Assembly: GCA_964555875.1 (NCBI GenBank) | Contig: CAZKUD010000003.1 | Location: forward strand, 14,659 to 78,658 | DNA length: 64,000 nucleotides | Direction: 5' to 3' | From: an uncultured archaeon | GTDB taxonomy: Archaea; Aenigmatarchaeota; Aenigmatarchaeia; QMZP01 | In this document: piece after piece, positions 15,450 to 50,266 of the stretch | How the letters are laid out: the number at the start of each line of letters is the position of its first letter | Position numbering within the stretch: the first letter of the stretch is position 1 | The notes under the pieces: model-generated | Told to the model about the DNA's origin: nothing | Databases searched by the model: none | Seen by the model: the letters and a program-made list of their open reading frames with translations, nothing else | Position numbers and translations under genes: made by a program

Positions 15450-16582
15450 ACTCCGGTGAATTCTGCTCAAGGCTGAAGGGCCTTGGATACAGCTTCTTTG
15501 CTGGCGTTCCCTGCTCCTTCTTCAAGGACACGATAAACTACGTGATAAGCGACAAGGACACGTTCTATGTTTCGGCTGTGAATGAGGGTGCAGCAGTAGG
15601 GATAGCGTCCGGCGCCCAGCTTGCCGGCAAGAAGGCCGCCGTGGTAATGCAGAACGCTGGCGTCGGCAACACCATAAACCCGCTGACATCTCTCAACATG
15701 ATATACAACATCCCAATCCTTATCTTCATAAGCGGAAGGGGTTATGGCGTGAAGGACGAGCCCCAGCACGCAATAATGGGCAGGGCCACACATAAGCTCA
15801 TGGAAGAGATAGGCGTTGAGGTGAAGGACCTGCCTGAAGATGATGATGAGGCCTTCAGGGAGATGGAGAGCTTTGATAAGAAGATGTCGGACGGAAAGCC
15901 CAGGGCTTTTGTCATCAGGAAGGGCACGATAGGGGCATGCGAGACTGAAAGGGGGGACATGAAGGAGAGGGTAATAGAGCCCCATTATTCCTCTGAAGAG
16001 AGGCCAAAGGGACTCATCAGCAGGTATGACGCCATAGAAACCGTAAGCAGGCTGATGGATGACAGAACCGCTGTTGTGGCCACCACAGGAAAGATATCAA
16101 GGGAGCTTTTCACCATAAATGACCGGCCGCTCAACTTCTACATGCAGGGATCCATGGGCCATGCCGCCGCGATAGGCCTGGGTGTAGCCATATGCAAGCC
16201 GGACAGGAAGGTCGTGGTGATGGACGGGGACGGGGCGGCCCTCATGCACATGGGCACGCTTTCGACCATAGGCCATTATGCTCCCGAGAACCTCACGCAT
16301 ATAGTGTTCGACAACGAGTGCCATGAAACAACCGGGGGGCAGGGCACCACATCAGTGACGGCCAGGCTTGACGATGTCGCCAGGTCATGCAGGTACAGCA
16401 GGGTGTACAGGGTGTACACGATAGAGGGCTTGGAGAATGCGGTCAGGGAGTCCTTGGAGGGGGATGGACCAGGGTTTATACTGGTGAAGGTCAGCAGGGA
16501 GAAGAAGGAAGGCATACCAAGGATAACCACTAAATACACAACGGAGGAAACCGCAAGGATATTCAGGGAGGCGCTTTCGTAA
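15446..16582 (+). CDS. ppd: Phosphonopyruvate decarboxylase (ThDP-dependent)
   Basis: The N-terminus GYSFFAGVPCSFFKD is typical of Ppd/AepY. ThDP motif: MDGDGAALMHMGTLSTIG...FDNECHETTGGQ. ATGA overlap with pepM. Confidence 0.8.
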   Translation: MNSGEFCSRLKGLGYSFFAGVPCSFFKDTINYVISDKDTFYVSAVNEGAAVGIASGAQLAGKKAAVVMQNAGVGNTINPLTSLNMIYNIPILIFISGRGYGVKDEPQHAIMGRATHKLMEEIGVEVKDLPEDDDEAFREMESFDKKMSDGKPRAFVIRKGTIGACETERGDMKERVIEPHYSSEERPKGLISRYDAIETVSRLMDDRTAVVATTGKISRELFTINDRPLNFYMQGSMGHAAAIGLGVAICKPDRKVVVMDGDGAALMHMGTLSTIGHYAPENLTHIVFDNECHETTGGQGTTSVTARLDDVARSCRYSRVYRVYTIEGLENAVRESLEGDGPGFILVKVSREKKEGIPRITTKYTTEETARIFREALS

Positions 16583-17721
16583 TGAGCCAGGAGATTGTTT
16601 TTGGGCCAGGCAAACTCCGTGAGCTTGGCAGCATAATAGAAAGGCTGGGGCCCAAATCCATCTTTCTCGTTACAGGCAAAAGGTCTTATGATTCCTGCGG
16701 AGCCAGGGAGATCGTAGAAGAGGCATGCAAAGGTAGGGAAGTCCACAGGTTCAGCGATTTCGAGGTCAACCCAAAGATTGAGGACGTCAAGAGGGGCATA
16801 AAGATTTGCCTGGAGAATGGCTGTGACCTTGTTGTGGCCGTCGGTGGGGGAAGCGTGATGGATGTCGGGAAGTCAGTTGCCATACTGTCCCGGCAAGAAG
16901 ACAAGGAACATCCGGAGAGATACATAACCAAGGAAGAGGCCCCTTTGCCTAAGACCCTCCCCATGGTTGCGGCTCCGACCACGTTCGGGACAGGGAGCGA
17001 ATCCACGCATTTTGCGGTGGTATACATAGGCAAGGACAAGTACTCACTTGCCGATGGGATGATGGTCCCCAAGGTCGCCATAATAGACCCCAGGATGTCT
17101 AAAACCCTGACAAGGAAGATAAAGGGAAGCACCGCATTCGATGCCATATGCCAGGCCCTGGAGGCCTACTGGTCAAACAGGTCCACGGAAGAGTCAAAAG
17201 AATACAGCACCAAGGCGCTGAAGCTCATGGTCCCATCAATTGAAAGGTTTGTCAATGAAGGGTATGACGAGAGGGCAGCATCTGACATGGCGCTTGGAAG
17301 CAACCTGGCGGGAAGGGCCATAAACATAGCCAAAACAACCGCTGTGCATTCGACTTCATATCCCATGACATCATATTTCGGTGTCCCCCATGGCCAGGCA
17401 TGCGCCATAACCCTGCCCGAATTTTTCAGGTTCAACTGCGGAGTGGGTGAGGGCAACATACAAGACAGCAGAGGCATTGGTTATGTCAAGGACATTATGA
17501 AGAGCATACCTGGACTGTTTGGGATGGAAAGCGAGGAGGAATGCTACAACAAGATTAAGACCCTTATGGTCAATTGCGGGCTTGCAACCAGATTGGGGGA
17601 CCTGAACATAAATGACATAAAGCTCATACTGGACAACGGCTTCAATCCGGAGAGGGTCAAGAACAACCCCGTGAAGGTCACAAGGTCTGATTTGAGGAGG
17701 CTGCTGGAGGGGATAGGATGA
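16582..17721 (+). CDS. Group III iron-containing alcohol dehydrogenase; candidate phosphonoacetaldehyde reductase (PhpC/FomC/Pdh-like)
   Basis: GGGSVMDVGK motif and His-rich metal site region (AVHSTSYPM...PHGQAC). TAATG overlap with ppd; the substrate assignment comes from operon context. Confidence 0.7.
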   Translation: MSQEIVFGPGKLRELGSIIERLGPKSIFLVTGKRSYDSCGAREIVEEACKGREVHRFSDFEVNPKIEDVKRGIKICLENGCDLVVAVGGGSVMDVGKSVAILSRQEDKEHPERYITKEEAPLPKTLPMVAAPTTFGTGSESTHFAVVYIGKDKYSLADGMMVPKVAIIDPRMSKTLTRKIKGSTAFDAICQALEAYWSNRSTEESKEYSTKALKLMVPSIERFVNEGYDERAASDMALGSNLAGRAINIAKTTAVHSTSYPMTSYFGVPHGQACAITLPEFFRFNCGVGEGNIQDSRGIGYVKDIMKSIPGLFGMESEEECYNKIKTLMVNCGLATRLGDLNINDIKLILDNGFNPERVKNNPVKVTRSDLRRLLEGIG

Positions 17722-18428
17722 AGGCTGTCATACTGGCCTCCGGCGCGGCCACCAGGCTCAGGCCGCTTACGGACAATGTGCCCAAGTGCCTCATAGAAGT
17801 CAATGGGGACACAATACTGGGAAGAATGCTGAGGGGGCTGGAAAGGAACGGGGTAAAGGATATCCTGATAACCACCGGCCACATGGGAGATGCTGTCAGA
17901 GAGTACGTGAAAAGCAATTTTCCGGGCCTTAACGTAGAGTATGTTCATAATCCCATGTTTGGGGACACAAATTACATATATTCCATGTGGCTTGCCAAAG
18001 ACAAGGTGACCGATGATGACATCCTGCTCCTTCACGGGGACCTGGTTTTTGACGAGACGCTCCTCGAAAGGGCGGTGAATGTAACCGGCAGCATGGTACT
18101 GGTCAACAAAAGCGTGCCTCCACCAGAGAAGGACTTCAAGGGCCTTGTTGTGGATGGGCACGTGAAGAACGTGGGAGTGAACGTGTTTGGGGATGGGGCA
18201 TTCTTCCTGGCCCCGATGTACAGGCTTTCCAAGGAAGCTTTCAAGGTATGGATGTCTGAGATAAACCGCTTTGTGGGCAATGGGAAGGTCAAATGCTATG
18301 CAGAGGATGCTTTCAACAACGTATCACATATAATAAAGGTTGCCCCCCTGTACTACACAGAATTCTGTATGGAAATAGATACCCCGGAAGACCTGGAAAA
18401 GGCAAAAAAGGCGCCCGAGATGGCCTGA
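17718..18428 (+). CDS. Nucleotidyltransferase (LicC/sugar-phosphate NTP-transferase fold); candidate phosphonate cytidylyltransferase
   Basis: AVILASGAATRLRPLTDNVPKCLIEVNG is the G-x-G-x-R-L signature. ATGA overlap with the upstream ADH gene. Confidence 0.7.
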   Translation: MKAVILASGAATRLRPLTDNVPKCLIEVNGDTILGRMLRGLERNGVKDILITTGHMGDAVREYVKSNFPGLNVEYVHNPMFGDTNYIYSMWLAKDKVTDDDILLLHGDLVFDETLLERAVNVTGSMVLVNKSVPPPEKDFKGLVVDGHVKNVGVNVFGDGAFFLAPMYRLSKEAFKVWMSEINRFVGNGKVKCYAEDAFNNVSHIIKVAPLYYTEFCMEIDTPEDLEKAKKAPEMA

Positions 18429-18489: not shown

Positions 18490-18903
18490 TTATTTCAGTA
18501 TCCCGAACGTCAGCCTCTTGTGGCCGTTGAAGTTCCAGAAGACCACTATCAATATGGACAGCATCTTGGCCAGCATGTACCAGAGCCCGAAGAACTCGAC
18601 GAACACAAAGAGGAACATTTGGTTTAGGGCAAGCCCAACCATGGCAACGGCCACAAAAAGGCCGAACTGCTTTGCTATTTTTTTGCTCTTGTTCTTGAAA
18701 TTGAGGTACTTGTTAAGGGAGTAATCTGTCGCCATGCCCGCTATATAGGACAGTCCCGCAGAGAACAAGTACCATATGCCTAGGAATTCTGTCAGGGAGA
18801 ATAGCAGCCCCAAGTCAACAAGCGCAGCTATGCCACCGAAGAACATGTAGTTTATGAAGAGCCTCATGTCCTGCTTCCCGAATATCGGTTTTATCACATC
18901 CAT
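18490..18903 (-). CDS. GtrA-family membrane protein
   Basis: 137 aa with 4 TM segments and the GtrA-like motif FINYMFFGGIAALVDLGLLF. Confidence 0.7.
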   Translation of the reverse strand: MDVIKPIFGKQDMRLFINYMFFGGIAALVDLGLLFSLTEFLGIWYLFSAGLSYIAGMATDYSLNKYLNFKNKSKKIAKQFGLFVAVAMVGLALNQMFLFVFVEFFGLWYMLAKMLSILIVVFWNFNGHKRLTFGILK

Positions 18904-18906: not shown

Positions 18907-19677
18907 TCAACTGACCCTGAATTTCTCGACTTCCCTTATTCCCCTGACGTGTAGCATGTAGACCATCAGCGCCTTGAGTATATTGGCGCTGTAGCCCACG
19001 AGTTCGGAGAATGACGGGTGCCGGGATTCCTTCCCGTAATGGGTAGGTATGGGCCTTTCCGTTATTTTCAGGCCCTTTATCTTGAACTGTATGAGGATGT
19101 CTGTATCGAACTCGTATGCGTCAGAACATTTCTTGAAAGGGACCTGATTCAGGGCGGCGCACCTGTAGACCCTGAACCCGGAGTGGTACTCCGAGAGCTT
19201 CAGCTTCAGCACGAAGTTTTCGATTCCGGTGAGGAACTTGTTGCCAATCAGCTTGAAGACTGGCATGCCCCCCCTCCTTGGGTTGCCCTCCATCCTTGAA
19301 CCGAAGACCATATCTGATTTGTCGCTCTTTATGGCGTCCAGAAGTGTGGGTATCTTCTCTGGAGCGTACTGGGCATCGCCGTGGAGCATCACAACGTAAT
19401 CATATCCCCTGTCTATGGCATACTGGTAGGCCACCTTCTGCGTGCCGCCGTATCCCAGGTTTCTCTTGTTCTTCAGGACGGTCAGGTTTGACATCCCCTT
19501 CCTTTTCTTGTACTGTACCCCAACGAGGTATGTGCTGTCCTGGCTGTCGTTGTCTATTATGAATATTTCCTTCACGACGTCCTTTATCTCCTTGGGTATC
19601 CTGTCTATGACCAGCGGGAGGGTATGGGCCACGTTATAGGCAGGTATGAATATGGCCACCTTCTCCTTCCTTTTCAT
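18907..19677 (-). CDS. Glycosyltransferase family 2 (polyprenyl-phosphate glycosyltransferase type, pairs with GtrA)
   Basis: VAIFIPAYNVAHTL, IFIIDNDSQDST and MLHGDAQY. The start at 19677 gives an ATGA overlap with rfbH; the 5' extension to 19842 overlaps rfbH and is low-complexity. Confidence 0.75.
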   Translation of the reverse strand: MKRKEKVAIFIPAYNVAHTLPLVIDRIPKEIKDVVKEIFIIDNDSQDSTYLVGVQYKKRKGMSNLTVLKNKRNLGYGGTQKVAYQYAIDRGYDYVVMLHGDAQYAPEKIPTLLDAIKSDKSDMVFGSRMEGNPRRGGMPVFKLIGNKFLTGIENFVLKLKLSEYHSGFRVYRCAALNQVPFKKCSDAYEFDTDILIQFKIKGLKITERPIPTHYGKESRHPSFSELVGYSANILKALMVYMLHVRGIREVEKFRVS

Positions 19678-21014
19678 CGTCCTCCCCTCCTCGATTTCAG
19701 GAAGCTGCCTATTCTTTCTGCCATGTAATCCAGCATCTCTTCTGTGATGCCCGGGTATACCCCGACCCAGAAGGTATTGTTCATTATTTTGTCCGTTTTC
19801 TCCAGGCCGCCGACTGTCCTGTGCTCCACTCCATTGAAACATGGCTGCCTGGTTATATTGCCTGAGAAGAGCAGCCTTGTGGCAATCTTGTTATCCTCGA
19901 GGTAGCTGACGATATCGGTCCTTGAGAACGGCGCCCCATCCTTCACGGTTATTGGGAATCCGAACCAGCTGGGGTCCGAGTTCTCAGTTGGCTTTGCGAA
20001 GGACAGGAGATTTTCGTGCTCATTGAGCCTTGCGTGAAGGCCCTTCCAGTTCCTTTTTCTGGCATCCACGAACCCCGGGAGCTTCCGGAGCTGCTCGACC
20101 CCTATGGCAGCCTGCATGTCTGTCAGCTTTAGGTTGTATCCCCTGTGGGAGTATATGTATTTATGGTCATAACCGTATGGCAGGGTGCCGAGCTTCCATT
20201 TGAACCTCTTCTTGCAGGTATCGTCGTGGCCCGGCTCGCACCAGCAATCCCTGCCCCAGTCTCTGAAGGACTCTATCAGCCTCTTCAACTGTGTGTCGTT
20301 GGTCACCAGTGCGCCCCCCTCTCCCATGGTCATGTGGTGCGGGGGATAGAAGCTGCACGTGGATATGTGCCCGAAGGTGCCTGTGTGTTTTCCCTTGTAT
20401 TTGGAACCCAGGGCATCGCAGTTGTCCTCTATCAGCCACAGGCCGTGCTTCTTGCATACCCTGCCTACTGTATCAAGGTCGAAGGGGTTGCCAAGGGTGT
20501 GGGCCAGGAATATGGCCTTTGTCTTGTCAGTCACTGCCTCTTCAATCCTGCTGCAGTCGATGTTAAGTGTGTCCTGGTTCACATCAAGGAATACCGGCAC
20601 CAGGCCGTTCTGGATGATGGGATTAACGGTTGTGGGGAAAGCGCATGCCACTGTTATGACCTCATCTCCCGGCTTGAGATGCCTCTCCCCCAGCTTGGGG
20701 GACGTGAGGGCAGACACCGCAAGCAGGTTGGCGGATGAGCCTGAGTTGGTAAGGGAGCAGTACTTGGCTCCCAGGAATTCTGAGAACTCTTTCTCGAATC
20801 GCCTGGCGAATCTTCCGGATGTCAGCCAGAAATCGAGGGACGCCTCCATGAGCGATTTTATCTCCTCGGCATCATACACCCTACCAGAGTACTTTATGTA
20901 TGTCTTCCCTGGCTTGAAGCTTTCCCTTCTCTTGTGGACTGCCTCAAAGTGCCTTTCAGCTATCTTACGTGCCTCCTTTCTCAGGGACTCGTCTTCTGCT
21001 TTATTTTCCATCAT
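19674..21014 (-). CDS. rfbH: CDP-4-keto-6-deoxy-D-glucose 3-dehydrase (E1; RfbH/DdhC/AscC type, PMP- and Fe-S-dependent)
   Basis: DegT-fold protein in which SFYPPHHMTMGEGG carries His where aminotransferases have the PLP-Lys. The Cys pattern C-x57-C-x1-C-x7-C was counted directly (DNC...RDCWCEPGHDDTC). Confidence 0.8.
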   Translation of the reverse strand: MMENKAEDESLRKEARKIAERHFEAVHKRRESFKPGKTYIKYSGRVYDAEEIKSLMEASLDFWLTSGRFARRFEKEFSEFLGAKYCSLTNSGSSANLLAVSALTSPKLGERHLKPGDEVITVACAFPTTVNPIIQNGLVPVFLDVNQDTLNIDCSRIEEAVTDKTKAIFLAHTLGNPFDLDTVGRVCKKHGLWLIEDNCDALGSKYKGKHTGTFGHISTCSFYPPHHMTMGEGGALVTNDTQLKRLIESFRDWGRDCWCEPGHDDTCKKRFKWKLGTLPYGYDHKYIYSHRGYNLKLTDMQAAIGVEQLRKLPGFVDARKRNWKGLHARLNEHENLLSFAKPTENSDPSWFGFPITVKDGAPFSRTDIVSYLEDNKIATRLLFSGNITRQPCFNGVEHRTVGGLEKTDKIMNNTFWVGVYPGITEEMLDYMAERIGSFLKSRRGGR

Positions 21015-22122
21015 TATCTAAAGTCTCCATGTAATTATCTATCTCCTTCTCCGTGGCCTCCCTCAGGCCGTCTCCCTTCTGGCTCCCATAATACCTCTTG
21101 TACCAGTCCACCGTTCTCTTAACAGTGTCATTTATACCGTACACTGGCTTCCAGCCAAGGGCGGAACACGCCTTCTCTATGTTGAGTTTGAGCAGTTTGG
21201 CCTCATGGGGCTTTCTGGAACCATCTACCGTATATTCCCCCCTGCCCCAATGCTTTATCAAGAGCTTGACCAGTTCCTCCACTGGTATTATGTTGCTGTC
21301 GTTTGGCCCGAAATTCCATGCCCCGCAGTATTTCGCCCCCCCTTTTCTCATCAGGGCGCCAAGCAGGAGGTAACCACAGAGCGGGTCAAGGATATATTGC
21401 CATGGCCTCACTGCACCAGGGGACCGGATGCTTATGGGCTCGCCCTTTGATATGGCCCTTATGCAGTCAGGAACTATTCTGTCAATTCCCCAGTCGCCCC
21501 CTCCTATGACATTGCCGGCCCTGACAGAAGAAAGGGCGACCTTGTTGGAGCTGTCCCCGTCACGCTGGCTGAAAAAGGACCTCCTGTATGCGCTTGTAAC
21601 CAGCTCTGCACAGCCCTTGCTGCAGCTGTACGGGTCGTATCCGCCCATAGGGTCGGTCTCCCTGTAGCCTCTGTCACATTCCATGTTCTCGTAGCACTTG
21701 TCGCTGGTAACATTCACACAAACCTTGGTGCTGCCAGACTTTCTGACACATTCCAGCACATTGATGGTTCCCATCACGTTCGTCTCGAATGTTAGCTTGG
21801 GCTCCTGGTAGGACGGCCTCACGAGTGATTGGGCAGCCATGTGGAAGACGAATTCAGGACAGTGTTCACTGAAAACGGACGCTAGCCTGCCCTCGTCCCT
21901 CACATCCCCCTTTATGTGGGTGACCAGATCATCAAGCCCTATGGAATCGAAGAGGTTGGGGATGCTAGGCGGCTCTAGGGAATATCCTATTACCTCAGCT
22001 CCCATGCGGTTGAGCCAGAGGGAGAGCCAGCTGCCCTTGAACCCCGTATGCCCAGTAACGAGCACCTTCTTTCCGCCGTAAGCTTCCCGCAGGGCTTCAG
22101 CCGTGCTTGATCTTCCAGTCAT
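21001..22122 (-). CDS. rfbG: CDP-glucose 4,6-dehydratase
   Basis: KKVLVTGHTGFKGSWLSLWL, a YSCSKGCAE (YxxxK) motif and about 370 aa, all typical of RfbG/DdhB. Confidence 0.85.
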   Translation of the reverse strand: MTGRSSTAEALREAYGGKKVLVTGHTGFKGSWLSLWLNRMGAEVIGYSLEPPSIPNLFDSIGLDDLVTHIKGDVRDEGRLASVFSEHCPEFVFHMAAQSLVRPSYQEPKLTFETNVMGTINVLECVRKSGSTKVCVNVTSDKCYENMECDRGYRETDPMGGYDPYSCSKGCAELVTSAYRRSFFSQRDGDSSNKVALSSVRAGNVIGGGDWGIDRIVPDCIRAISKGEPISIRSPGAVRPWQYILDPLCGYLLLGALMRKGGAKYCGAWNFGPNDSNIIPVEELVKLLIKHWGRGEYTVDGSRKPHEAKLLKLNIEKACSALGWKPVYGINDTVKRTVDWYKRYYGSQKGDGLREATEKEIDNYMETLDNDGK

Positions 22123-22555
22123 ATGGTATCTTATCCGTGTTCGGATCCATCCTCTTTATTTCATCAGGGTCGTGTGGTATGGTGGCGCAGTTGGCCACTA
22201 TCGAGGTTTCGTCGCCGACTCCCCTGAAGCCGTTCCAGACCATCGGGGGCACCTTCACCAGGCAATAGTTGTCCTGGCCCATGACAATCTCCATTATGTT
22301 TCCCTTGGTAGGCGAACCTTCCCTGGCATCATACAACACGAGTTTTATGTTGCCCTTGATTACCGCATAGTTGAGGGTCATCTTCTCATGTATGTGCCAT
22401 CCCTTCACGACGCCGGGATGGACAGAAGAGAAGTATATCTCCCCGAATTTCTCAAAGATGGGGTCATCGCTCCTGAGCATATGGTATATGCATCCCCGCT
22501 CGTCCTGTATCTTCTTCAGGGGCTTCACGACCACTCCTTCTATTGTGCTTTTCAT
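22097..22555 (-). CDS. RmlC-like cupin, NDP-4-keto-6-deoxyhexose 3,5- or 5-epimerase family
   Basis: 152 aa with DERGCIYHM and GWHIHEKMTLNYAVIKG (cupin His). The start at 22555 gives an ATGA overlap. The ORF-track extension to 22708 is rejected. Confidence 0.65.
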   Translation of the reverse strand: MKSTIEGVVVKPLKKIQDERGCIYHMLRSDDPIFEKFGEIYFSSVHPGVVKGWHIHEKMTLNYAVIKGNIKLVLYDAREGSPTKGNIMEIVMGQDNYCLVKVPPMVWNGFRGVGDETSIVANCATIPHDPDEIKRMDPNTDKIPYDWKIKHG

Positions 22556-23499
22556 TTCCCTCCCCCTTTCTTGTACCAGTCTATGGTCAGCTTCAGGCCT
22601 GTTTCCAGGACCATGTTCTTGGGATGCCACCCCAGCATCCTCTCCGCCTTGCTTATGTCGGCGCAGCAGAGCCATACCTCGTTGCTCCTGTGCTCCAGAG
22701 CATCCCACTGGGGATTGCCAGAACCCACTATCTCCCTTATCTTGTTGACCACGTCCTTCACGCTCACGGCCTTTCCTGTTCCTATGTTGAAAACCTCATG
22801 CCTGCTTGGGAATTTCCGGGACGATAGCAGCTTCATGTAAGCATCAACTATGTCCTCCACGTACACGAAATCCCATTTTTGCTTTCCTGTTGTCATTTTT
22901 TGGGTTTCCCCATCCATCATGCTCCTTATGGAGTGGGGTATTAGCTTCCTTTTGTGGTCGGCTGGCCCGTAAGGGGGGAACAGCCTGAGGGTGACAGCAC
23001 GCAGGCTTCCGTTCTTGGTATAGAAGTCACAGGCCTGCTCAGCGTATATCTTTGTGAGCGCATAAAGGTTCACCGGTTCCAGCTCTGATTCCTCTGTGAG
23101 CTTCCCGTCGCTTGCCTTGTATACGAAAGCCGTGCTGGTGTTGACAAAGAGCCTGGTTCCATGCTCCCTGGATGCTTCCAGGAGGTTTATGGCGCCTGTT
23201 GTGTTGGCGCCCATCATGGACTTTATTTCATCTGACCTATGATTGACAGCATAGTAGGTTGCAAGATGGAAGACTGCGTCCGGCCTGAAATCAGAGAATG
23301 CGGAAGAAACGCCGCCAGTGTCGCTCAGGTTTGCGTCATATGCCTTTATCTTGCTGATGCTGTCCTCTATGCGCCAGGTATCTGATTCAGTCCTCTTTAT
23401 TATGCCAACCTCAAAACCGTCTTTCAGCAACCTCTTCACCAGATGGGAGCCTATGAAGCCGGTGGCTCCCGTTATCATCACTCTTTTCATCTCAGTCAT
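22552..23499 (-). CDS. NAD(P)-dependent nucleotide-sugar reductase/epimerase (extended SDR); candidate CDP-4-keto-3,6-dideoxyhexose 4-reductase
   Basis: VMITGATGFIGSHL and YALTKIYAE (YxxxK). It sits between rfbF and the cupin epimerase. ATGA overlap at 23496-23499. Confidence 0.7.
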   Translation of the reverse strand: MTEMKRVMITGATGFIGSHLVKRLLKDGFEVGIIKRTESDTWRIEDSISKIKAYDANLSDTGGVSSAFSDFRPDAVFHLATYYAVNHRSDEIKSMMGANTTGAINLLEASREHGTRLFVNTSTAFVYKASDGKLTEESELEPVNLYALTKIYAEQACDFYTKNGSLRAVTLRLFPPYGPADHKRKLIPHSIRSMMDGETQKMTTGKQKWDFVYVEDIVDAYMKLLSSRKFPSRHEVFNIGTGKAVSVKDVVNKIREIVGSGNPQWDALEHRSNEVWLCCADISKAERMLGWHPKNMVLETGLKLTIDWYKKGGGK

Positions 23500-24275
23500 C
23501 CCCATGTCTTCCAGAAAGCCTTTTTATTGTTCCATAGGGTGTTGAGGAAAACCATGTCCCTATAGGTATCCATGCAGCCCCACTGCCCCCTGTGGACATG
23601 CACCATGAGCTGGCCCTCTTTTGCTAGCTTTTCAAGGGGGCCCATCTCGAAATCACAGTTCTTTTCCAGGGACAGATAATCGAATATCTTCCTGTTGAAC
23701 ACGAAGAACCCACCGTTTATCAGGCCCTCCGAAAGCTGGGGTTTTTCTGTGAAGGACACCACCTTGTCCCCGCTTATCACCATCTCTCCGAACCTGGAGG
23801 GCGGCCTGACACCCGTGACTGTCCCTATCTTGCCGTGCTTTTTGTGGAATTCTAGAAGCTCCTTTATGTTTACGTTGGCCACCCCGTCCCCGTATGTCAG
23901 CATGAACGTGTCCCCGTCTATGTATTTTTCTATCTGCTTTATCCTGGAGCCCTTCAGGTTGGCTTCTCCAGTGTCGGCAAGCGTGACTTTCCAGTCCCCC
24001 TCGCCATGGTTCCTGTGTATTTCTATCTTGTTGTGGTCTCCCAGCTCTATTGTGAAGTCGTTCTTCAGGACGCCGTAATTGTAGAAATATTCCTTTATCT
24101 TCTCGCCCTTGAATCCCAGGCAGAGGACGAAATCTTTGAATCCGTAGTTGGAATACGTCTTCATTATGTGCCAGAGCATGGGCTTTCCCCCTATCTCTAC
24201 CATGGGTTTTGGCTTGGATTCTGTCTCTTCCTTTAGCCTGGTGCCTGTTCCGCCGCATAGGATAACGACTTTCAT
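23496..24275 (-). CDS. rfbF: Glucose-1-phosphate cytidylyltransferase
   Basis: MKVVILCGGTGTRLKEETESKPKPMVEIGGKPMLWHIMK matches the RfbF/DdhA N-terminus nearly canonically; 259 aa. Confidence 0.85.
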   Translation of the reverse strand: MKVVILCGGTGTRLKEETESKPKPMVEIGGKPMLWHIMKTYSNYGFKDFVLCLGFKGEKIKEYFYNYGVLKNDFTIELGDHNKIEIHRNHGEGDWKVTLADTGEANLKGSRIKQIEKYIDGDTFMLTYGDGVANVNIKELLEFHKKHGKIGTVTGVRPPSRFGEMVISGDKVVSFTEKPQLSEGLINGGFFVFNRKIFDYLSLEKNCDFEMGPLEKLAKEGQLMVHVHRGQWGCMDTYRDMVFLNTLWNNKKAFWKTWG

Positions 24276-25084
24276 AATTTACTCCGAACCTCAGGCTTTT
24301 TATAAGTTTGCCTAATTTGCTTCTTGGCCTTTATTAATAAACCGACGCTTGTCCCGGAATTCTTGAAGAGGGCGTTATCAAGCTTTATGATTCCTGCAAC
24401 CGCCCTTTGGAGTGTCCCCGGGGCGGCCTTTCTTCCCGATATCATGGGCTTGCCTGGCCTCGATCTGTTAGTGGGATCGGGCTTGACTGACCTGGATAGG
24501 ATAAAAGAAAGGTAGTTCTCTAAGAGGCCCGCAAGATAATGGTTCAGGTATTCCATCTTTTCTATACTGAATCCTGCCCCCTCTATGATGCATGTGAGCA
24601 GCTCCCTGCTGTACAGCCTTAGGTGACCGAATCCCCACATGCCAATGGGCAGGTGCGCCCCAAGGGGCCTCAAGAAGCCGTTGACGGGGTCGTATGTCCA
24701 GGGGTATCTTGAATGGGGCACGGAAAGGACAAGATTCCCCCCATCCTTCAGGACCCTGAATATCTCAGATACCACTTTCTTGTCGTCCCTTATGTGTTCC
24801 AAGACATCCATACAGATTACGGCATCAAAGGAGTTGTCCCTGAAGGGAAGTTCCTCTCCCCCTGAAATTGCATAGTGGTTGTTGCCGCCACTGCCCAGTT
24901 TTGCAGACATGATATCGCTCCTGTTTATGTCCACCCCCACAGTACGGCTGAACATGGCAGACAGTGTCCTGTCGTATTCCCCGTCGCCGCAGCCCACGTT
25001 TAGCACAGTCCTTCCTTTGCCTATGTTTTCCATGGCTGTTTTCATCCTGTTGAAATAGCTGGGAGCTAAGGTCTTGATGGACAT
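24272..25084 (-). CDS. Class I SAM-dependent methyltransferase
   Basis: Motif I VLNVGCGDGEY and motif post-II FDAVICMDVLEHI. ATGA overlap with rfbF. Confidence 0.7.
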   Translation of the reverse strand: MSIKTLAPSYFNRMKTAMENIGKGRTVLNVGCGDGEYDRTLSAMFSRTVGVDINRSDIMSAKLGSGGNNHYAISGGEELPFRDNSFDAVICMDVLEHIRDDKKVVSEIFRVLKDGGNLVLSVPHSRYPWTYDPVNGFLRPLGAHLPIGMWGFGHLRLYSRELLTCIIEGAGFSIEKMEYLNHYLAGLLENYLSFILSRSVKPDPTNRSRPGKPMISGRKAAPGTLQRAVAGIIKLDNALFKNSGTSVGLLIKAKKQIRQTYKKPEVRSKL

Positions 25085-25091: not shown

Positions 25092-25808
25092 TTAAATGTT
25101 ATTCCGTATGTTTTTCCAGGTGCTGGTTTCTTCCTTTACTTTTCTGTCTTTCTTGCCCTGGCGTTTCCTTATCATCCAGAAGATCCAGAAGAGAGGTATG
25201 TATACGCCGTAAAAATACATGAAGTATTGAAGAAGGTCCAGAACGCCGAGCACATAAAGCACAGGGAGAAACATGTTCGCAAGGGTTATGTCATAGGCAA
25301 ATTTGGCCACACGCCCCGATTTCTTTTCCCTTCTAAGGGCCATGTGCTCTGCCCTGAGCTCGTGGAGCCTTAGCATCATCATGAATACCGAGGCAGATAT
25401 GCCCAGGAGCAGAAGTATCAAGCTGCCGCCCCTGAGGAACAGGCCAAGGCCTATGAAGATGTGGACGAAGTAGTACATGTCGTGACCCGCTATGTCAAGC
25501 AGCCTGCCATAGTAGGTTGGTCCGTGGTACCTGGCCAGCTCTCCGTCAACATGGTCGAAGACGTAGGCCACATTGAGCAGGATGGCACTCACGACTATGT
25601 TCCACCAACTGCCGCTCACAAGGAACGGGAAGAAGGAAGAGGCCATGAATATCAGCTGTATCACTGTGGCGGTGTTCGGGGCTATCCCCATAATGAGGAA
25701 GAGCTTTGTAACGTATATGGACACTTTCCTCATTACCCGCGTGTACAGGAATTCCTTCCCCAGTTCAGGGGGCTGGCATATTTTTCTGAGTTCCTTTATA
25801 GACTCCAT
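25092..25808 (-). CDS. CDP-alcohol phosphatidyltransferase-family membrane protein
   Basis: The signature D-x2-D-G-x2-A-R-x8-G-x3-D-x3-D is present as DHVDGELARYHGPTYYGRLLDIAGHD. Multi-TM, 238 aa. Confidence 0.75.
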   Translation of the reverse strand: MESIKELRKICQPPELGKEFLYTRVMRKVSIYVTKLFLIMGIAPNTATVIQLIFMASSFFPFLVSGSWWNIVVSAILLNVAYVFDHVDGELARYHGPTYYGRLLDIAGHDMYYFVHIFIGLGLFLRGGSLILLLLGISASVFMMMLRLHELRAEHMALRREKKSGRVAKFAYDITLANMFLPVLYVLGVLDLLQYFMYFYGVYIPLFWIFWMIRKRQGKKDRKVKEETSTWKNIRNNI

Positions 25809-27557
25809 TCAATCACCTTCCAGGCAATCGGTCCTGAATATCATTGACACCGGGACACCCCCTGCCGCGACAGAGTAAAGAGGCTCGCATCCTTCCATGT
25901 AGCTAGCCATCTCAACGGCATTGTAGGGCTCTGATGTGGAGGAGGAATCTACTATGCTTCTCCTGTTCAGGATGACGTAATAGTCTGCCCCCTCTTTCTC
26001 TGTTGAAATTATTATATCATTCCTTAAAATTCCTTCTTGGTCGAATATGGCAAGGTTGAGCCCTCTCGAGTCCAGGTCCGAAGAGGGCACCCTCTCCCCT
26101 ATCTGCCCTATGTCTCCATGTTTGTATGCATTGAATATGTTCCAGGCCATTGGCACATGGACAACTGCTTTCTCTTCCAGGTTGCTGTTCATCCAGGGAA
26201 CAAGATGCAGATACGATTCTCCCCAATAGTCGAGTTCAAATCCGGCCGCATATGCCCCCCCTGTGCCGCCCACAATTTCACTGTAATAGCTCACCATGTT
26301 GGGCATGCCACCAGCAAGGGGAATGACGGCAGAAGCCGCTATTATGGCTGCGAGGATGGCTGCTATATGTATCTTGTGCCCATATTTGTCTGACAATAGG
26401 CTGATGATTCTGTCTGCACCGATGCCGGATATCATTGCCACAAAGGGGAATATCGGCACGAACAATCTAACGACATCGTGGGGATCACCGAATGGAGTAG
26501 AAAAGAACGCCAATAAGAGGAATGCGCACAGGAAAGGCAACATGAATGCCCTGTCTTTTAGGGACACCGTATTCTTCAGCCCGAAGTATGTGCCCGCGAG
26601 CGCCAGTATCAGTATCGCTGCAGGCATGGTGACAGAAGACATGACCCATGGATAGTGCCAGGGGGGGCTCTGGAATATCTGCCCCAGGTAATAGACCGGA
26701 ACATGTATGTTGGCTGACTGGTTGGAGTAAAACCCGAAGTAATCTAGTAGCCTGGGAACAGTGTCCTTCCAGAGCCATGGCCAGGCAGCTATGAGCACCA
26801 GCGGCGTAAGCATTATGGAGGAATACGCAACAAGCGGTACTCTCCTTAGGGCCGCCACCATATTAGAGTGTTTTATCTTCCTGGCGGCGGGAACCAGCCT
26901 GTCCCTGTAGCTTATCAGCAGCCAGAGGGGTATGGCAACGAACAGTATGTATGCCTGTATCTTGCTTGCGAGTGCAAGTCCCATCATGACTCCCGTAAGG
27001 AGACCGAACCTCCAGTCACGGAGCCCCTTCCAGAAGAAATAAGATGCTATCAGCATCATTATGGCGGCTGTCACGTCAAGCGTCATGTAATGGGAGTGTG
27101 AAAAGAACCTCGGCATGAATATCAGGGACAAAGACGCGAAGGTGCCTGCCCTAATGCTGTATGCCTCTGATGTGAAGAGGAACAGCACAAAAACGCCTAT
27201 TGCCACCAGCAGCATGATGGCAATCCGGTGAGCCGCCACGGAGGACCAGAAATCAAGCTGTTGCCCGTTGAGGAAGAAAGTAATTGCCCAGGTGAAACCT
27301 GAGATGGTCTGGGCCAGTCTGGGTCTGTTATGCCAGCATCTTCCCCATCCGTCTCCCTCGGGCACATGATCTATGGTGCACATCTCCATTGGGGGGTTAC
27401 CTGTGGCCCAGGAATATATCGAATGCATCCTGACCTTTGATGCCGCAAGGTATCTGGTCTCATCCCATACCAGACCAGTCGTGTCTATCGTGGACACTGA
27501 AAGCGCCAAGTACAGAAGTACCAGTAATATGCCTAAAAGGTAAATGTTCTTGTTCAT
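25809..27557 (-). CDS. GT-C fold membrane glycosyltransferase (ArnT/PMT-like), third copy in window
   Basis: 582 aa with a multi-TM core and a C-terminal soluble domain. An early loop holds the acidic motif VWDETRY (a DE-type motif typical of GT-C enzymes). Confidence 0.6.
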   Translation of the reverse strand: MNKNIYLLGILLVLLYLALSVSTIDTTGLVWDETRYLAASKVRMHSIYSWATGNPPMEMCTIDHVPEGDGWGRCWHNRPRLAQTISGFTWAITFFLNGQQLDFWSSVAAHRIAIMLLVAIGVFVLFLFTSEAYSIRAGTFASLSLIFMPRFFSHSHYMTLDVTAAIMMLIASYFFWKGLRDWRFGLLTGVMMGLALASKIQAYILFVAIPLWLLISYRDRLVPAARKIKHSNMVAALRRVPLVAYSSIMLTPLVLIAAWPWLWKDTVPRLLDYFGFYSNQSANIHVPVYYLGQIFQSPPWHYPWVMSSVTMPAAILILALAGTYFGLKNTVSLKDRAFMLPFLCAFLLLAFFSTPFGDPHDVVRLFVPIFPFVAMISGIGADRIISLLSDKYGHKIHIAAILAAIIAASAVIPLAGGMPNMVSYYSEIVGGTGGAYAAGFELDYWGESYLHLVPWMNSNLEEKAVVHVPMAWNIFNAYKHGDIGQIGERVPSSDLDSRGLNLAIFDQEGILRNDIIISTEKEGADYYVILNRRSIVDSSSTSEPYNAVEMASYMEGCEPLYSVAAGGVPVSMIFRTDCLEGD

Positions 27558-35262: not shown

Positions 35263-36392
35263 AGATAGCGATACTCGGCGCCAGGAGGTTCCCTCCCAGG
35301 ATGAGCGGGATAGACAAGCAGGTATACAACCTGTCGCTCAGGCTGGAGAGGATGGGCCATGAGGTGTTCGTCTTTGTCTCCGAGAGTGCCGGGAAGGCCC
35401 CCAGGAAGGGCATACACATAATCAGGATACCAAGCATAAACATTGAGCTGTCTGACATGAGCATGTCGTACCTCTCCTATAACGTGCTCTCGGTGCCCAA
35501 GGTAGTGTCTGCCATAAGGAAGCACAAGATAGACGTGCTTCATGCGAACAATCCCCCGTCAGGGGCCATAGCATACCTGGTGAAGAAGGCCACGGGCATA
35601 CCCGTAGTCTACACGCTTAGGGGGACCATACCTGACAACAGGAAGGCCAGGGGCAGGATGGTGTCTAAGCCGCTCTCCTTGATGGAGAAGATGGCGCTCA
35701 GGGTGGCTGACAAGTCCACCGCGCTCACCCAGCACATCAAGAGAACGACCGAAAGGTACCACAGGAGGAAGCTGGACATGGTCGTGATACCCAACGGCAT
35801 AGACACCGGCAGGAAAGGCGTGCCGGGAAGGATAAGGAAGGAGTTCGGGCTGAAGAGGAGTCATAAGGTGCTGGTCTTTGTGGGCAGGCTGGTGGGAGTG
35901 AAGGGACTGGCCTACCTGATGGACGCGATGAAGGGCGTGTGCAGGAAGCACCCGGACGCCAGGCTCCTTGTGGTAGGCGGAGGGCCCATAAAGCATTCCC
36001 TGGAGGAGCAGGCAAGGGTGAATGGCATAGGGAAGGCCGTGATATTCACTGGGCCCAGGGCAGACGTCCCTGACATACTCGCGGACTCCGACCTGATGGT
36101 CCTCCCGTCATTGCACGAAGGTTTCCCGAACGTCGTGCTGGAGGCCATGGTCGAGGGCAAGCCGGTGGTTGCCACAAGGGTCACCAGCAACCCTGAGATA
36201 GTCAGGCCGGCCTTCGGCACGCTTGCAGAGCCAAGGAACCCTGAGAGCCTGGAAAGGGCGATATGCTCCATGCTGTCCGGAGGAAAGCTGGAAAGCATGG
36301 GGAAGGCAGCCCTAAAGGAATCCAGGAAATATTCATGGGACAACGTGTCAAGGATGTTCGAGAGGGTCTTCAAAGAGGTTGCTCGCCGCTGA
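35259..36392 (+). CDS. Glycosyltransferase family 4 (GT-B)
   Basis: MKIAILGARRFPP... and C-terminal SLHEGFPNVVLEAMVEGKPVVATRV. ATGA overlap with asnB. Confidence 0.8.
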   Translation: MKIAILGARRFPPRMSGIDKQVYNLSLRLERMGHEVFVFVSESAGKAPRKGIHIIRIPSINIELSDMSMSYLSYNVLSVPKVVSAIRKHKIDVLHANNPPSGAIAYLVKKATGIPVVYTLRGTIPDNRKARGRMVSKPLSLMEKMALRVADKSTALTQHIKRTTERYHRRKLDMVVIPNGIDTGRKGVPGRIRKEFGLKRSHKVLVFVGRLVGVKGLAYLMDAMKGVCRKHPDARLLVVGGGPIKHSLEEQARVNGIGKAVIFTGPRADVPDILADSDLMVLPSLHEGFPNVVLEAMVEGKPVVATRVTSNPEIVRPAFGTLAEPRNPESLERAICSMLSGGKLESMGKAALKESRKYSWDNVSRMFERVFKEVARR

Positions 36393-38667
36393 TGCTCATG
36401 AAGCTGCTTATGTCATCAGTTCCCTCTTCAGGCTGTTTTGCAGGCTCGTCCCCATAGAGAACCTGGTATATCTTGACCGCGCCGTTGTCGAATGTTTTTT
36501 CCACCGGAAGGCCGAAGCCGTCCATGAACATGAGGCTGGAGAACACGTTCCTGTAGGCCTCTTCCGGCACGTAGAATACGCCGAAGTTGGTTATGGCAAC
36601 GCAGCCCCCTATGTTGGGGGTCTCCGTCCCCAAGGTTATTATGCCTGATGTGGTGCAGACGTCATTGACATATGCCCTGGAAACGTACTGGTCGCCTTCT
36701 GATATGAGGAACATGGGAGTCCCGGAAAGGCCTGCGCCCTCGAAAGGCAGCCATATACTGTACTGGCCTGCCTTGAACTCATATATGGTCTTGTTGCCCT
36801 GGGGGTAAGTGCCTGTCTGCTGGAACTGGAGCATGCCTGTTATCTCGCTTCCCTTGCTGCCTATCTTGGATATGGCCCCGTACTTCCCTGGAAGAGTGTA
36901 ATCCATAAGTATGTAGTCCACATGGTACCTCTCCTTCAGCCAGCTCTCGCAGGTGTAGTTCTCAACCTCGAATTCGCATGTGTCATCGCTCCAGTTCCTT
37001 GCGTCATTCATGAACCATACTGCTATGTCATACCTCGGGCCGGCGCCCCCGCCGTCGCTGACAGAGGGCCTCTGACCCCTTGTCTGGAACCAGTATCCGA
37101 AATCCCACCAGGACAGTATGTTGGAATCTTCGGGGGTCTCGGTGGCCAGGAATTCCATGGACTCCTTCCAGTAGTCGTTGAACGAGGGGCCTATGGAATT
37201 TGAGTAGACATATGCGCTGCCGAAGTTCGTTATCAGGAGGAGGGACATATAAACAGCGCCCAAGACCAGTACGGCGTTCCTCATATGTCTTATCCTTGAC
37301 ACTGCCTCTTTCCTGGTCACTTGCCGGGCCTTGTCAATCAGCCAGGATATTGCAATGGCACCCGAAACAGCAGCCGCAGGTCCCAGGACGAACAGGAGAC
37401 GTATCATGCCGAAGACCAGGGCTATGCTGGAGATTACCCAGAGAATCACGAACACCATGGACCAGTCGTATTTTTTGGTGTAGAATATGTATGCCATTAT
37501 TGCGACGCTGGCAAACATGAATATGTAAAGGGAAACGTACTGGGACATGAACCCCAGCTGCGGGATTATTGACGATATGTACCCCGTGCCAGTCGCCGAG
37601 TATATGTCGGCCCAGGAGCCCCCTATCTGCTCAGCTACAGTGCTGGCTGCAGTCGCCTTTTCCATTGATACCATGATTATTATGCCCTGCAGCGTGCTGT
37701 AAGCGACGTCAGAGAACATGGTGGATATGAAGAACCCTACGGCCCCGATGAGGGCCATGGCAGGCACGAAATATGGCAGATGCTCCTTCTTTACCAGGCC
37801 GTACCTCTCCACCCCGTGCCTCAGGCCCATGATTATCGCGGTGGCGATGAGCAGAAGATAGGACATCTCGGTCAGGCTGGTGTATTTGTAGGGGAACACG
37901 AAGTATCCGACTATTATGGTTATGAACATCGGCATAAAGGTCGCAGTCAGTTTCTTTGAATGCTGGTTCAGCAGCAGGAGTATGAGGGCGAACCCTGCGA
38001 TGAGCATGAAGAATATCCTGGCGCCTCCCCAGGTCTGTGCCACGAAAAGCAGGGCCAGTCCGGATACTATGCCCGAGATTGCGCTCGACTTCCAGGACTT
38101 GTCCTTGTAGCCCTTCAGGAAGAAGTAAATGCCCAGCATGAAGAAGGGGGCAGACATGCTCTCCTTCTCGAAGAAGCCCGCAGAGGTCCTGGTTATGAAG
38201 GCAGGGACAGTGGCCATGAAGAACGCTGCCAGCAGGCCCGCCTTCCTGTCGTACAAAAGCTTGCCCACGAAGTAGGTGATTGCTACAGCAAGCGCTCCCA
38301 TCATGGCAGGGAACAATATGGCGAACTGCAGATATGTCATGCTAAGGCCGCCCATGACTACGTAGAGTATGGCAGGGAGGTAGTACAGGGTCGGGGGGTC
38401 GTAAAGGCCGGGCTTTGCCCCGAACGGGTGGTGCCTCATCAGGTCTATTTCTGGCATCTGCCAGCTGTTCTCCAGCACGTACTCGCTGATCCTGAAGAGA
38501 TAGAAGGGGTCTATTGCCTGGAGCTCCCCGAACCTGGCCGGGAGGGCCCTGAGCCAGAACGCGGACACGACTATCAGGGCAAGCAACACCATGTAGATGA
38601 CGGTCTTTTTGTCTGCCTTTGGCATGCTGAAACTGGGAGCGATTTTGGATAATGCTTTTATGTCCAT
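36370..38667 (-). CDS. aglB: Archaeal oligosaccharyltransferase AglB (STT3 family)
   Basis: Multi-TM N-terminal domain plus a WWDYG-type motif, seen as ILSWWDFGYWFQ. ATG at 38667 (MDIKALSK) is preferred; 38625 is an alternative. The ORF-track start at 38730 would overlap aglH. Confidence 0.85.
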   Translation of the reverse strand: MDIKALSKIAPSFSMPKADKKTVIYMVLLALIVVSAFWLRALPARFGELQAIDPFYLFRISEYVLENSWQMPEIDLMRHHPFGAKPGLYDPPTLYYLPAILYVVMGGLSMTYLQFAILFPAMMGALAVAITYFVGKLLYDRKAGLLAAFFMATVPAFITRTSAGFFEKESMSAPFFMLGIYFFLKGYKDKSWKSSAISGIVSGLALLFVAQTWGGARIFFMLIAGFALILLLLNQHSKKLTATFMPMFITIIVGYFVFPYKYTSLTEMSYLLLIATAIIMGLRHGVERYGLVKKEHLPYFVPAMALIGAVGFFISTMFSDVAYSTLQGIIIMVSMEKATAASTVAEQIGGSWADIYSATGTGYISSIIPQLGFMSQYVSLYIFMFASVAIMAYIFYTKKYDWSMVFVILWVISSIALVFGMIRLLFVLGPAAAVSGAIAISWLIDKARQVTRKEAVSRIRHMRNAVLVLGAVYMSLLLITNFGSAYVYSNSIGPSFNDYWKESMEFLATETPEDSNILSWWDFGYWFQTRGQRPSVSDGGGAGPRYDIAVWFMNDARNWSDDTCEFEVENYTCESWLKERYHVDYILMDYTLPGKYGAISKIGSKGSEITGMLQFQQTGTYPQGNKTIYEFKAGQYSIWLPFEGAGLSGTPMFLISEGDQYVSRAYVNDVCTTSGIITLGTETPNIGGCVAITNFGVFYVPEEAYRNVFSSLMFMDGFGLPVEKTFDNGAVKIYQVLYGDEPAKQPEEGTDDISSFMSISGEQPL

Positions 38668-41983: not shown

Positions 41984-42055
41984 TGGGGTAGGTGGGAATC
42001 GAACCCACAACACCACGATCTTCAGTCGTGTGCTCTCCCATTGAGCTACTACCCC
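41984..42055 (-). tRNA. tRNA-Phe (anticodon GAA), no intron, CCA not encoded
   Basis: Hand-folded cloverleaf: GGGGTAG TA GCTC AATGGGA GAGC A CACGA CTGAAGA TCGTG GTGTT GTGGG TTCGATT CCCAC CTACCCC A. All four stems are Watson-Crick. Confidence 0.9.
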
Positions 42056-42863: not shown

Positions 42864-42904
42864 GATATCACTACCTTTATATTGGAGAAATTTCAATATA
42901 AACT

Positions 42905-44080: not shown

Positions 44081-44112
44081 ACTTGTTAAAGCTGGGGTTC
44101 CATTATTTCTCT

Positions 44113-46274: not shown

Positions 46275-46325
46275 GTATATAGATTGTGCAGGCAAACTTA
46301 AATAAATAAAAAATAGCGAAGTTTC

Positions 46326-47291: not shown

Positions 47292-47325
47292 GCTTTATAT
47301 TAAGGTCGGCATTAATTTATAAAAC

Positions 47326-48342: not shown

Positions 48343-48378
48343 GATAATAATTAATCCCGGAAGATATATATTAATTGG

Positions 48379-48891
48379 ATGGGCAGGAAAAAGGGCCAGA
48401 TGATTTTCGAGTTCATGGTTGCCGCAGTCCTTTTCTTCGGCATAGTACTCTACATAATGAGCTACCTGAGCGCCAGCATGGCGTCTTTCAGCGACGATTT
48501 CCATGTCAACACCCTGCACAGCAAGGCCTTCGCAGCGTCAGAGCTGCTGGTGCACACGAAGGGTGCCTGGTCAGGCAGCGTGCCTGTTTCCATGGGCCTG
48601 ATGAAGGAGTACCCTATGCTGGACGGCACCAAGATGGGCTACATGGGGTCTTACTGCCAGGGGAACTACAGGGACGTGCAGGAGGCGCTGGGCCTGGTGG
48701 ACACCCCCCTCTTCATGTCAGGGGCCGAAAGGCGGTACAACGTCAGGATAGAGATAAACGAGACCGACGGCACGCCGAGGATGCAGTGCGGCTCTTATGG
48801 AGGGGAAGAGGTGTTCGCCTCCGTGGACAGGGTCGCGCTCTCCGATGACCCTGTCCCGAAGAAGCTGCTGGTCAGGGTCGTCGTCTGGTAG
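48379..48891 (+). CDS. Type IV pilin-like protein (class III signal peptide)
   Basis: MGRKKGQMIFEFMVAAVLFFGIVLYIM has a basic leader, Gly at the predicted cleavage site, Glu at +5 and a hydrophobic helix. It is divergent from paralog C across a 36-bp AT-rich spacer. Confidence 0.55.
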   Translation: MGRKKGQMIFEFMVAAVLFFGIVLYIMSYLSASMASFSDDFHVNTLHSKAFAASELLVHTKGAWSGSVPVSMGLMKEYPMLDGTKMGYMGSYCQGNYRDVQEALGLVDTPLFMSGAERRYNVRIEINETDGTPRMQCGSYGGEEVFASVDRVALSDDPVPKKLLVRVVVW

Positions 48892-48893
48892 AA

Positions 48894-50237: not shown

Positions 50238-50266
50238 GGTATCACTTGATTATTGTCCCAGCCGGC

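Follow-up and report, generated by a model that had tools for sequence, protein, structure and literature searches.

The window considered in this work, a stretch of 64,000 nucleotides, contains five tightly packed open reading frames (ORFs) on the minus strand at 19674-24275. In the direction of transcription, they encode RfbF, an extended short-chain dehydrogenase/reductase (SDR), an RmlC-like cupin, RfbG, and E1 (RfbH), the dehydrase that removes the 3-hydroxyl group in the biosynthesis of 3,6-dideoxyhexoses activated with cytidine diphosphate (CDP). The gene set itself is conventional and bacteria-like. From the sequence comparisons described below, we consider it probable, though well short of certain, that the five genes constitute a functional, horizontally shared module for the production of a CDP-3,6-dideoxy-L-hexose.

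The same contig carries a set of archaeal markers, namely AglB/STT3, S17e, Cdc6/Orc, Hjc, NAC, TFS and a family-B DNA polymerase (PolB), which marks the host as an archaeon, in agreement with a preliminary description of this DNA. The best named relatives of PolB are found in metagenome-assembled genomes (MAGs) of Candidatus Aenigmatarchaeota and Nanoarchaeota (55-58% identity), and the 90%-identity cluster of Hjc includes MEE9406417.1, from a Candidatus Aenigmarchaeota archaeon. On the strength of these two proteins, the host is most likely a DPANN archaeon, probably of an Aenigmarchaeota-like lineage.

Identity of RfbF, RfbG and E1

Three of the five products pass the cut-offs of NCBIfam equivalog models. 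RfbF matches TIGR02623 over its full length (338.5 bits, against a cut-off of 300.25), RfbG matches TIGR02622 (467 bits, against 278.45), and E1 matches NF011936, the RfbH model, which covers residues 5-441 of 446 (736.3 bits, against 423). The corresponding proteins of the Salmonella enterica rfb region (rfbI-rfbF-rfbG-rfbH-prt-tyv; our locus L088) are 51%, 49% and 57% identical to RfbF, RfbG and E1, respectively. The positions and identities that the preliminary description had assigned to these genes are thereby upheld.

The window also resembles the asc cluster of Yersinia pseudotuberculosis (ddhD/ascD, ddhA, ddhB, ddhC/ascC, ascE, ascF), with which it shares orthologues of RfbF, RfbG and E1, the predicted CDP-glucose route, and a proposed 5-epimerase and 4-reductase to follow. 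The crystallised Yersinia E1 (PDB 3bcx/3bb8) is 58% identical to the window E1 over 430 residues (E = 1e-171 with HMMER), well outside what chance could give. In the window E1, the peptide SFYPPHHMTMGEGG begins at residue 221 and has His at 226 and 227; His226 lies opposite His220 of 3bcx and, in the mutant chain 3bb8 (H220K), opposite Lys, and so occupies the place of the Lys that binds pyridoxal 5'-phosphate (PLP) in DegT-type aminotransferases. Likewise, Cys199, Cys257, Cys259 and Cys267, spaced C-x57-C-x1-C-x7-C as in Yersinia, lie opposite Yersinia Cys193, Cys251, Cys253 and Cys261, which are reported to be the ligands of the [2Fe-2S] cluster (Agnihotri et al. 2004). His226 and the four Cys are invariant in eight relatives, and the four-Cys motif of E1-type enzymes is confirmed by a review (PMC8987622). 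The preliminary description had counted the same spacing, quoted the peptides, and suggested an alignment by which the His and Cys could be checked; a residue count confirms the former, and the alignment shows that the residues correspond to the active-site and cluster positions.

Unlike the asc cluster, the window lacks ddhD/E3, has the gene order F-SDR-cupin-G-H, belongs to an archaeal host without lipopolysaccharide, and couples these genes to a GT2 glycosyltransferase and GtrA, where the asc cluster has Wzx and an O-unit glycosyltransferase. The coordinates of the genes are collected in Table 1.

Table 1. Genes of the putative 3,6-dideoxyhexose module and associated genes, with the matches on which each assignment is based
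Gene or product	Coordinates	Strand	Match or remark
rfbF/ddhA, glucose-1-phosphate cytidylyltransferase (forms CDP-D-glucose)	23496..24275	-	TIGR02623 equivalog
Extended SDR, 312 aa, proposed NADPH-dependent CDP-3,6-dideoxy-4-hexulose 4-reductase	22552..23490 (alternative start 23505)	-	PF01370
Short RmlC-like cupin, 152 aa, proposed CDP-3,6-dideoxy-4-hexulose 5-epimerase	22097..22555	-	PF00908
rfbG/ddhB, CDP-glucose 4,6-dehydratase	21001..22122	-	TIGR02622 equivalog
rfbH/ddhC/ascC, E1, predicted CDP-4-keto-6-deoxyglucose 3-dehydrase dependent on pyridoxamine 5'-phosphate (PMP) and [2Fe-2S]	19674..21014	-	NF011936
GT2 glycosyltransferase, proposed dolichyl-phosphate dideoxyhexose synthase	18907..19677	-	PF00535, 74 bits
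GtrA-family small membrane protein	18490..18903	-	PF04138, 85.8 bits
GT-C (PMT_2) membrane glycosyltransferase, candidate extracytoplasmic transferase for lipid-linked sugar	25809..27557	-	PF13231 and PF02366 (weak)
Class I S-adenosylmethionine (SAM) methyltransferase, possible sugar O-methylase	24272..25084	-	PF08241, 78 bits; stop overlaps rfbF start
AglB/STT3 oligosaccharyltransferase, 751 aa, archaeal marker, likely consumer of lipid-linked glycan	36370..38625	-	PF02516 STT3

A separate observation concerns the length of E1. The closest homologues are mostly 526-557 aa long and carry an additional N-terminal domain of about 95 aa (P0002, P0008, P0026 at L086:10001-11641, P0058 and P0085), which passes the PemK/MazF toxin model PF02452 with 25-35 bits (gathering threshold 23.1). 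The window E1 is without this domain.

The cupin, the SDR and the conservation of the five genes

For the two remaining genes, we propose roles from fold and context: the cupin would act as the 5-epimerase and the SDR as the 4-reductase. The cupin matches PF00908 with 52 bits (gathering threshold 27), its best PDB match is 3ejk (E = 3e-38), and its His54 is aligned with the His of the RGLH motif of RmlC ('rglhyq' in 2b9u). Its score against the RmlC equivalog TIGR01221, 30.8 bits, does not reach the cut-off of 155.75, and therefore it is not RmlC itself. The SDR matches PF01370 with 177 bits and reaches no NCBIfam equivalog; its best PDB match is the GalE-type epimerase 4zrm (127 bits), and, at 24% identity to the Salmonella CDP-paratose synthase (Prt) and 22% to Tyv (both in L088), it is an orthologue of neither. 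Among its orthologues, the GxxGxxG motif, Thr118, Tyr143-x3-Lys147, and Arg33 directly after beta-2 are all invariant. In SDRs, the pattern of Thr118, YxxxK and Arg33 is weak evidence for the use of NADP(H) and for a reductase role.

In the preliminary description, the pathway was called ascarylose- or paratose-type. The combination of an RmlC-like cupin and an SDR fits an ascarylose-type (L-series) product better than paratose. The Salmonella region has no cupin that acts on a CDP-sugar. The product is most likely a CDP-3,6-dideoxy-L-hexose, with ascarylose and its C4 epimer as the candidates.

The conservation of the module was assessed in the 80 genome loci most similar to the window E1, which are mostly bacterial and include three from Methanoregula and one from Methanobacteriaceae. 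Together with the loci of the two closest metagenomic relatives and three plasmid records (Azospirillum, Streptomyces and Desulfobaculum), they make up 85 other rfbH loci; a match on a Haladaptatus plasmid was rejected as RfbH at only 34% identity. The order RfbF-SDR-cupin-RfbG-E1 is kept in a Dehalococcoidales genome (L006), where the five proteins are 70, 58, 66, 64 and 67% identical to those of the window, and also in L086, which represents a different kind of organism because it contains genes of the tricarboxylic acid (TCA) cycle. Apart from L086, 7 of the 80 genome loci contain a cupin orthologue (63-73% identity) close to rfbH, and 4 of these 7 also have an RmlD-like reductase. This co-occurrence with E1 argues for an epimerase-plus-reductase pair that acts after E1 and leads to an L-series 3,6-dideoxyhexose.

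These data also bear on an alternative in which the cupin and the SDR act directly on the product of RfbG to give a CDP-6-deoxy-L-hexose, with E1 serving a second branch, or in which the SDR is an epimerase, so that the final sugar would not be ascarylose-type. Such a use of the intermediate has a precedent, since the ddhB-altA-altB module of Yersinia makes 6-deoxy-L-altrose from it (PMC5399914); moreover, the best solved relatives of the SDR are 4-epimerases, and L087, the locus of the closest E1 relative, has two SDRs and no cupin, which indicates that the tailoring steps vary. On the other hand, the window E1 is intact and translationally coupled, the same five-gene order occurs in three unrelated genomes, and the cupin is accompanied by both E1 and the RmlD-like reductase in other loci, as expected if epimerisation and reduction follow E1. 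We regard this alternative as quite unlikely.

Note that RfbH homologues are already annotated automatically in MAGs of Methanophagales, Methanoperedens, Candidatus Argoarchaeum, Methanoregula and Methanobacteriaceae; therefore, the presence of the gene in Archaea is not new.

Clustering of the ORFs near rfbH (1,407 ORFs from 81 sequences) yielded several recurrent families: a thiamine diphosphate (ThDP) enzyme, an ArnC-like GT2, a NeuB-like protein, transketolase halves and an RmlD-like SDR. The ThDP enzyme, about 600 aa long and acetolactate-synthase-like, lies within a few kilobases of rfbH in about 30 of the 80 loci, including those of Methanoregula (loci L008-L083), and presumably resembles YerE of yersiniose biosynthesis. 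Environmental bacteria and methanogens may thus include many producers of branched-chain 3,6-dideoxy sugars. Furthermore, many loci (L013, L016, L020 and L023-L026, among numerous others) have between rfbF and rfbH a gene whose product shares only 30-35% identity with the window RfbG, which points to a second, divergent CDP-glucose 4,6-dehydratase family.

Electron supply of E1

In Yersinia and Salmonella, E1 works with the reductase E3 (PMC8987622; PMC5399914), and the E3 gene ddhD belongs to the ddhDABC cluster (PMC5399914). E3 (AscD/RfbI) joins a plant-type [2Fe-2S] ferredoxin domain to a flavin/NADH domain resembling ferredoxin-NADP reductase (FNR). In the Salmonella rfb region, the equivalent gene, rfbI, is located directly upstream of rfbF. 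The window has no such gene, and we searched for one by several means. The Pfam lists for the window and about 7 kb beyond each of its ends (about 78 kb in total) contain no Fer2, FAD_binding_6, NAD_binding_1 or flavodoxin family. The plant-type ferredoxin motif C-x4-C-x2-C occurs in no ORF of the window, and the set of E3 motifs (C-x4-C-x2-C, RxYS and GxGxxP) gave no candidate among all window ORFs and the 85 loci. Local signatures of 4Fe-4S ferredoxin, flavodoxin or rubredoxin were likewise not found, the only motifs encountered being the CxxxCxxC motifs of radical-SAM proteins and the zinc ribbon of TFS.

The Salmonella region served as a positive control. Its unlisted ORF at 5115-6086, between rfbC and rfbF, is the canonical rfbI; the RfbI and AscD probe sequences, which at family level are BenC-like ferredoxin-FNR proteins, are 98% and 51% identical to it, respectively. 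When the window and 91 loci (1.69 Mb) were searched by tblastn with the genuine RfbI of L088, L088 itself was the only locus to score (E = 0). In the 85 non-Salmonella rfbH loci, searched up to 10 kb from the gene or as far as the contig extends, no RfbI homologue was detected (best E = 0.26), and the best value on the window's own contig was 1.9 (in L004). The annotation, too, gives no E3 beside rfbFGH in the Azospirillum record or beside rfbH in the Streptomyces and Desulfobaculum plasmid records. The window thus lacks the linked E3 of a ddhDABC-type E1/E3 system, and the absence noted in the preliminary description extends to the flanking 7 kb on either side.

That E3 is an obligatory and conspicuously missing component is not supported. 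Since none of the 85 other loci has an E3 either, a missing E3 is the usual state outside Salmonella- and Yersinia-type clusters and does not constitute a pathway gap. Rather than being a peculiarity of this archaeon, rfbH loci of this kind are the rule in this sample, and "obligatory", the word used in the preliminary description, is an overstatement; the missing gene is explained as the common state. There is also a biochemical precedent. SpnQ, a homologous 3-dehydrase that converts TDP-4-keto-2,6-dideoxyglucose in Saccharopolyspora spinosa (TDP, thymidine diphosphate), receives its electrons from general redox pairs, either ferredoxin with ferredoxin reductase or flavodoxin with flavodoxin reductase (PMC8987622). 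As predicted for the window E1, SpnQ is an E1-type PMP/[2Fe-2S] enzyme; it, too, has no dedicated E3 in its cluster, and its reduction by general carriers is the mode that we propose for the window E1. The two differ in that SpnQ acts on TDP-2,6-dideoxy sugars in antibiotic pathways, whereas the window E1 lies beside RfbF and RfbG and passes the RfbH equivalog model.

Alternatively, the host may use a dedicated E3-type reductase (an AscD/RfbI-like [2Fe-2S] flavoprotein) whose gene is located elsewhere in the genome. The DNA examined amounts to about 78 kb, whereas the contig is at least 166 kb long; FNR-like reductases are frequent among housekeeping proteins, and E1 of Yersinia and Salmonella does pair with E3. 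However, one would expect the gene of a specific partner to be found nearby in at least some genomes, as ddhD is in Yersinia and Salmonella, and it is linked in 0 of the 85 non-enterobacterial loci, searched up to 10 kb from rfbH or as far as each contig extends. We judge an unlinked E3 to be unlikely.

A second alternative dispenses with the external reductant: E1 would either behave like ColD, in which an enamine is hydrolysed and PMP is regenerated at the expense of glutamate, or form a 4-amino sugar as an aminotransferase, as SpnQ does when its reductase is missing. ColD (GDP-4-keto-6-deoxymannose 3-dehydratase of colitose biosynthesis; GDP, guanosine diphosphate) shares with E1 the DegT fold, the His in place of the PLP-binding Lys, and a 3,6-dideoxy-L-hexose precursor as product, and it needs no reductase; SpnQ transaminates when its reductase is absent (PMC8987622); and no reductase is encoded locally in the window. 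Against this, the four cluster Cys, which are missing in ColD, are strictly conserved, the window E1 scores only about 198 bits in comparison with ColD and 736 bits on the RfbH equivalog, and E1 shows no transferase activity under the conditions used for SpnQ (PMC8987622). This alternative is thus very improbable.

The proposed supply of electrons from a general donor gains a parallel within the surrounding glycan island, where three genes for B12-binding radical-SAM enzymes occur (31974-33395 and, just left of the window, L005:988-2406 and L005:5082-6434). The low-potential one-electron donor of these enzymes is not encoded locally, and we count their reliance on an unlinked donor in favour of the same arrangement for E1. 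In a search for a conserved alternative reductase, none of the recurrent neighbour families of rfbH described above proved to be a redox partner.

The island also encodes a 413-aa fusion of two nitroreductase-family domains, which bind flavin mononucleotide (FMN), with a class I methyltransferase domain (5356-6597, minus strand). We considered this fusion as a donor for E1 and dropped it because it is 13 kb distant and does not accompany rfbH in other genomes.

Two practical consequences follow. Schemes that require E3 in order to call the pathway will miss most real CDP-3,6-dideoxyhexose loci. In addition, the lack of E3 in 85 of 85 non-enterobacterial loci makes it a well-defined and directly testable question what reduces E1 physiologically.

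Proposed pathway and proposed surface delivery, and the glycan island

Judged from the ORF coordinates, the five genes are part of a minus-strand string of 13 genes that runs from 31868 to 18490, with ends that overlap or nearly abut. In transcription order, the string comprises a GT2, an SDR, a uridine diphosphate (UDP)-sugar dehydrogenase, a methyltransferase, the PMT_2 GT-C, a CDP-alcohol phosphatidyltransferase (25092-25808), a second methyltransferase, RfbF, SDR, cupin, RfbG, E1, a second GT2 and GtrA. The stop of E1 overlaps the start of the second GT2 by 4 nt, and the GtrA gene begins 3 nt downstream of that GT2, whose best matches, all below threshold, are AglJ, PpgS and a dolichyl-phosphate hexose transferase. 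GtrA proteins are partners of polyprenyl-phosphate sugar synthases. Three-component systems of GT2, GtrA and GT-C include mycobacterial PpgS/Rv3632/Rv3779, bacterial Gtr, ArnC/ArnT, and AglD/AglJ-type steps of Haloferax, and the window has all three components in the string that contains the sugar module. The known systems use UDP- or GDP-sugars, whereas a CDP-dideoxyhexose is the donor proposed here. Of the 80 genome loci, about 20, from bacteria, have an ArnC-like GT2, of a family different from the window GT2, in the neighbourhood of rfbH, and GtrA-like genes are found near rfbH in 7 loci; this recurrence supports an association of the sugar module with a polyprenyl-phosphate route.

On this basis, the following pathway can be proposed. 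RfbF would convert glucose-1-phosphate and CTP into CDP-glucose, and RfbG would convert the latter into CDP-4-keto-6-deoxy-D-glucose. E1 would then remove the 3-OH through a PMP Schiff base, with His226 as the base, to give CDP-4-keto-3,6-dideoxy-D-glucose. The electrons would be delivered in two single-electron transfers via the [2Fe-2S] cluster on Cys199/257/259/267, from a general low-potential ferredoxin or flavodoxin encoded elsewhere, with no dedicated E3, as for SpnQ. Subsequently, the cupin would epimerise C5 and the SDR would reduce C4, yielding CDP-ascarylose or its C4 epimer. The co-transcribed GT2 and GtrA would load the sugar onto dolichyl phosphate, and the GT-C would transfer it outside the membrane to a surface glycan that is ultimately handled by AglB. 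We predict the first three steps from matches at equivalog level and from the conservation of catalytic residues; from context we infer the electron donor, what the cupin and the SDR do and with which stereochemistry, the lipid-linked route and the final acceptor.

Several points weigh against this scheme. The SDR matches no characterised CDP-sugar reductase, and its best PDB matches are epimerases, so that it could be an epimerase itself. Among the PDB and NCBIfam matches of the short cupin there is no characterised member of its family, 3ejk being named 'dTDP sugar isomerase' by its deposit only. We know of no GT2 polyprenyl-phosphate synthase that uses a CDP-sugar. DPANN genomes are reduced, and this one may lack a suitable ferredoxin or flavodoxin system. 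The inspected DNA is about 78 kb of the genome, so that an unlinked E3-like reductase may exist. Weighing all of this, we still lean towards the scheme as a whole, that is, an active module supplied by a general electron donor, with delivery to a surface glycan by GT2, GtrA and GT-C. A broader proposal is decidedly more tentative, and we would not bet on it: the E1-type 3-dehydrases outside the Enterobacterales would form a large E3-independent group that takes electrons directly from general low-potential carriers, and a DPANN archaeon would thereby bear a 3,6-dideoxy-L-hexose on its surface by way of a dolichyl-phosphate-linked GT2/GtrA/GT-C route starting from a CDP-sugar.

If the module is active, a 3,6-dideoxyhexose on the surface would be new for archaeal and especially for DPANN surfaces; the DPANN cell surface presumably mediates contact with the host cell. 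Our text searches of the literature turned up no publication on a CDP-3,6-dideoxyhexose pathway in Archaea, and no sugar of this class appears in a 2024 review of archaeal N-glycans. According to a survey of 12,939 genomes, most sugars of the rare group, which includes tyvelose, paratose and abequose, are absent from Archaea, and these three occur mainly in Salmonella and Yersinia.

The string is embedded in a surface-glycan island of at least 45 kb (positions 1-39000 of the window and about 7 kb further left, in L005), which is very large for a presumably small DPANN genome. Apart from the genes already described, the island contains many GT2, GT4 and GT-C genes, three LPG_synthase_TM proteins, a carbamoyltransferase and an Asn-synthase homologue (33412-35262), as well as AglB. 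Its G+C content (50-54% in the first 32 kb of the window) is slightly lower than that of the housekeeping half (55-57%). A run of ORFs of about 300-450 aa at 42900-50240, with DUF1512 and MJ0043_C as the only recorded Pfam matches, adjoins a tRNA-Phe gene (41984-42055).

Divergent from the sugar genes, a phosphonate biosynthesis cluster occupies 13728-18428 on the plus strand. Its first gene encodes a phosphoenolpyruvate (PEP) mutase with a fused nucleotidyltransferase domain (13728-15449). Genes for a ThDP decarboxylase (15446-16582) and an Fe-alcohol dehydrogenase (16582-17721) come next, and one for another nucleotidyltransferase (17718-18428) is the last. This gene content suggests the synthesis of a nucleotide-activated hydroxyethylphosphonate for the decoration of glycans or lipids.

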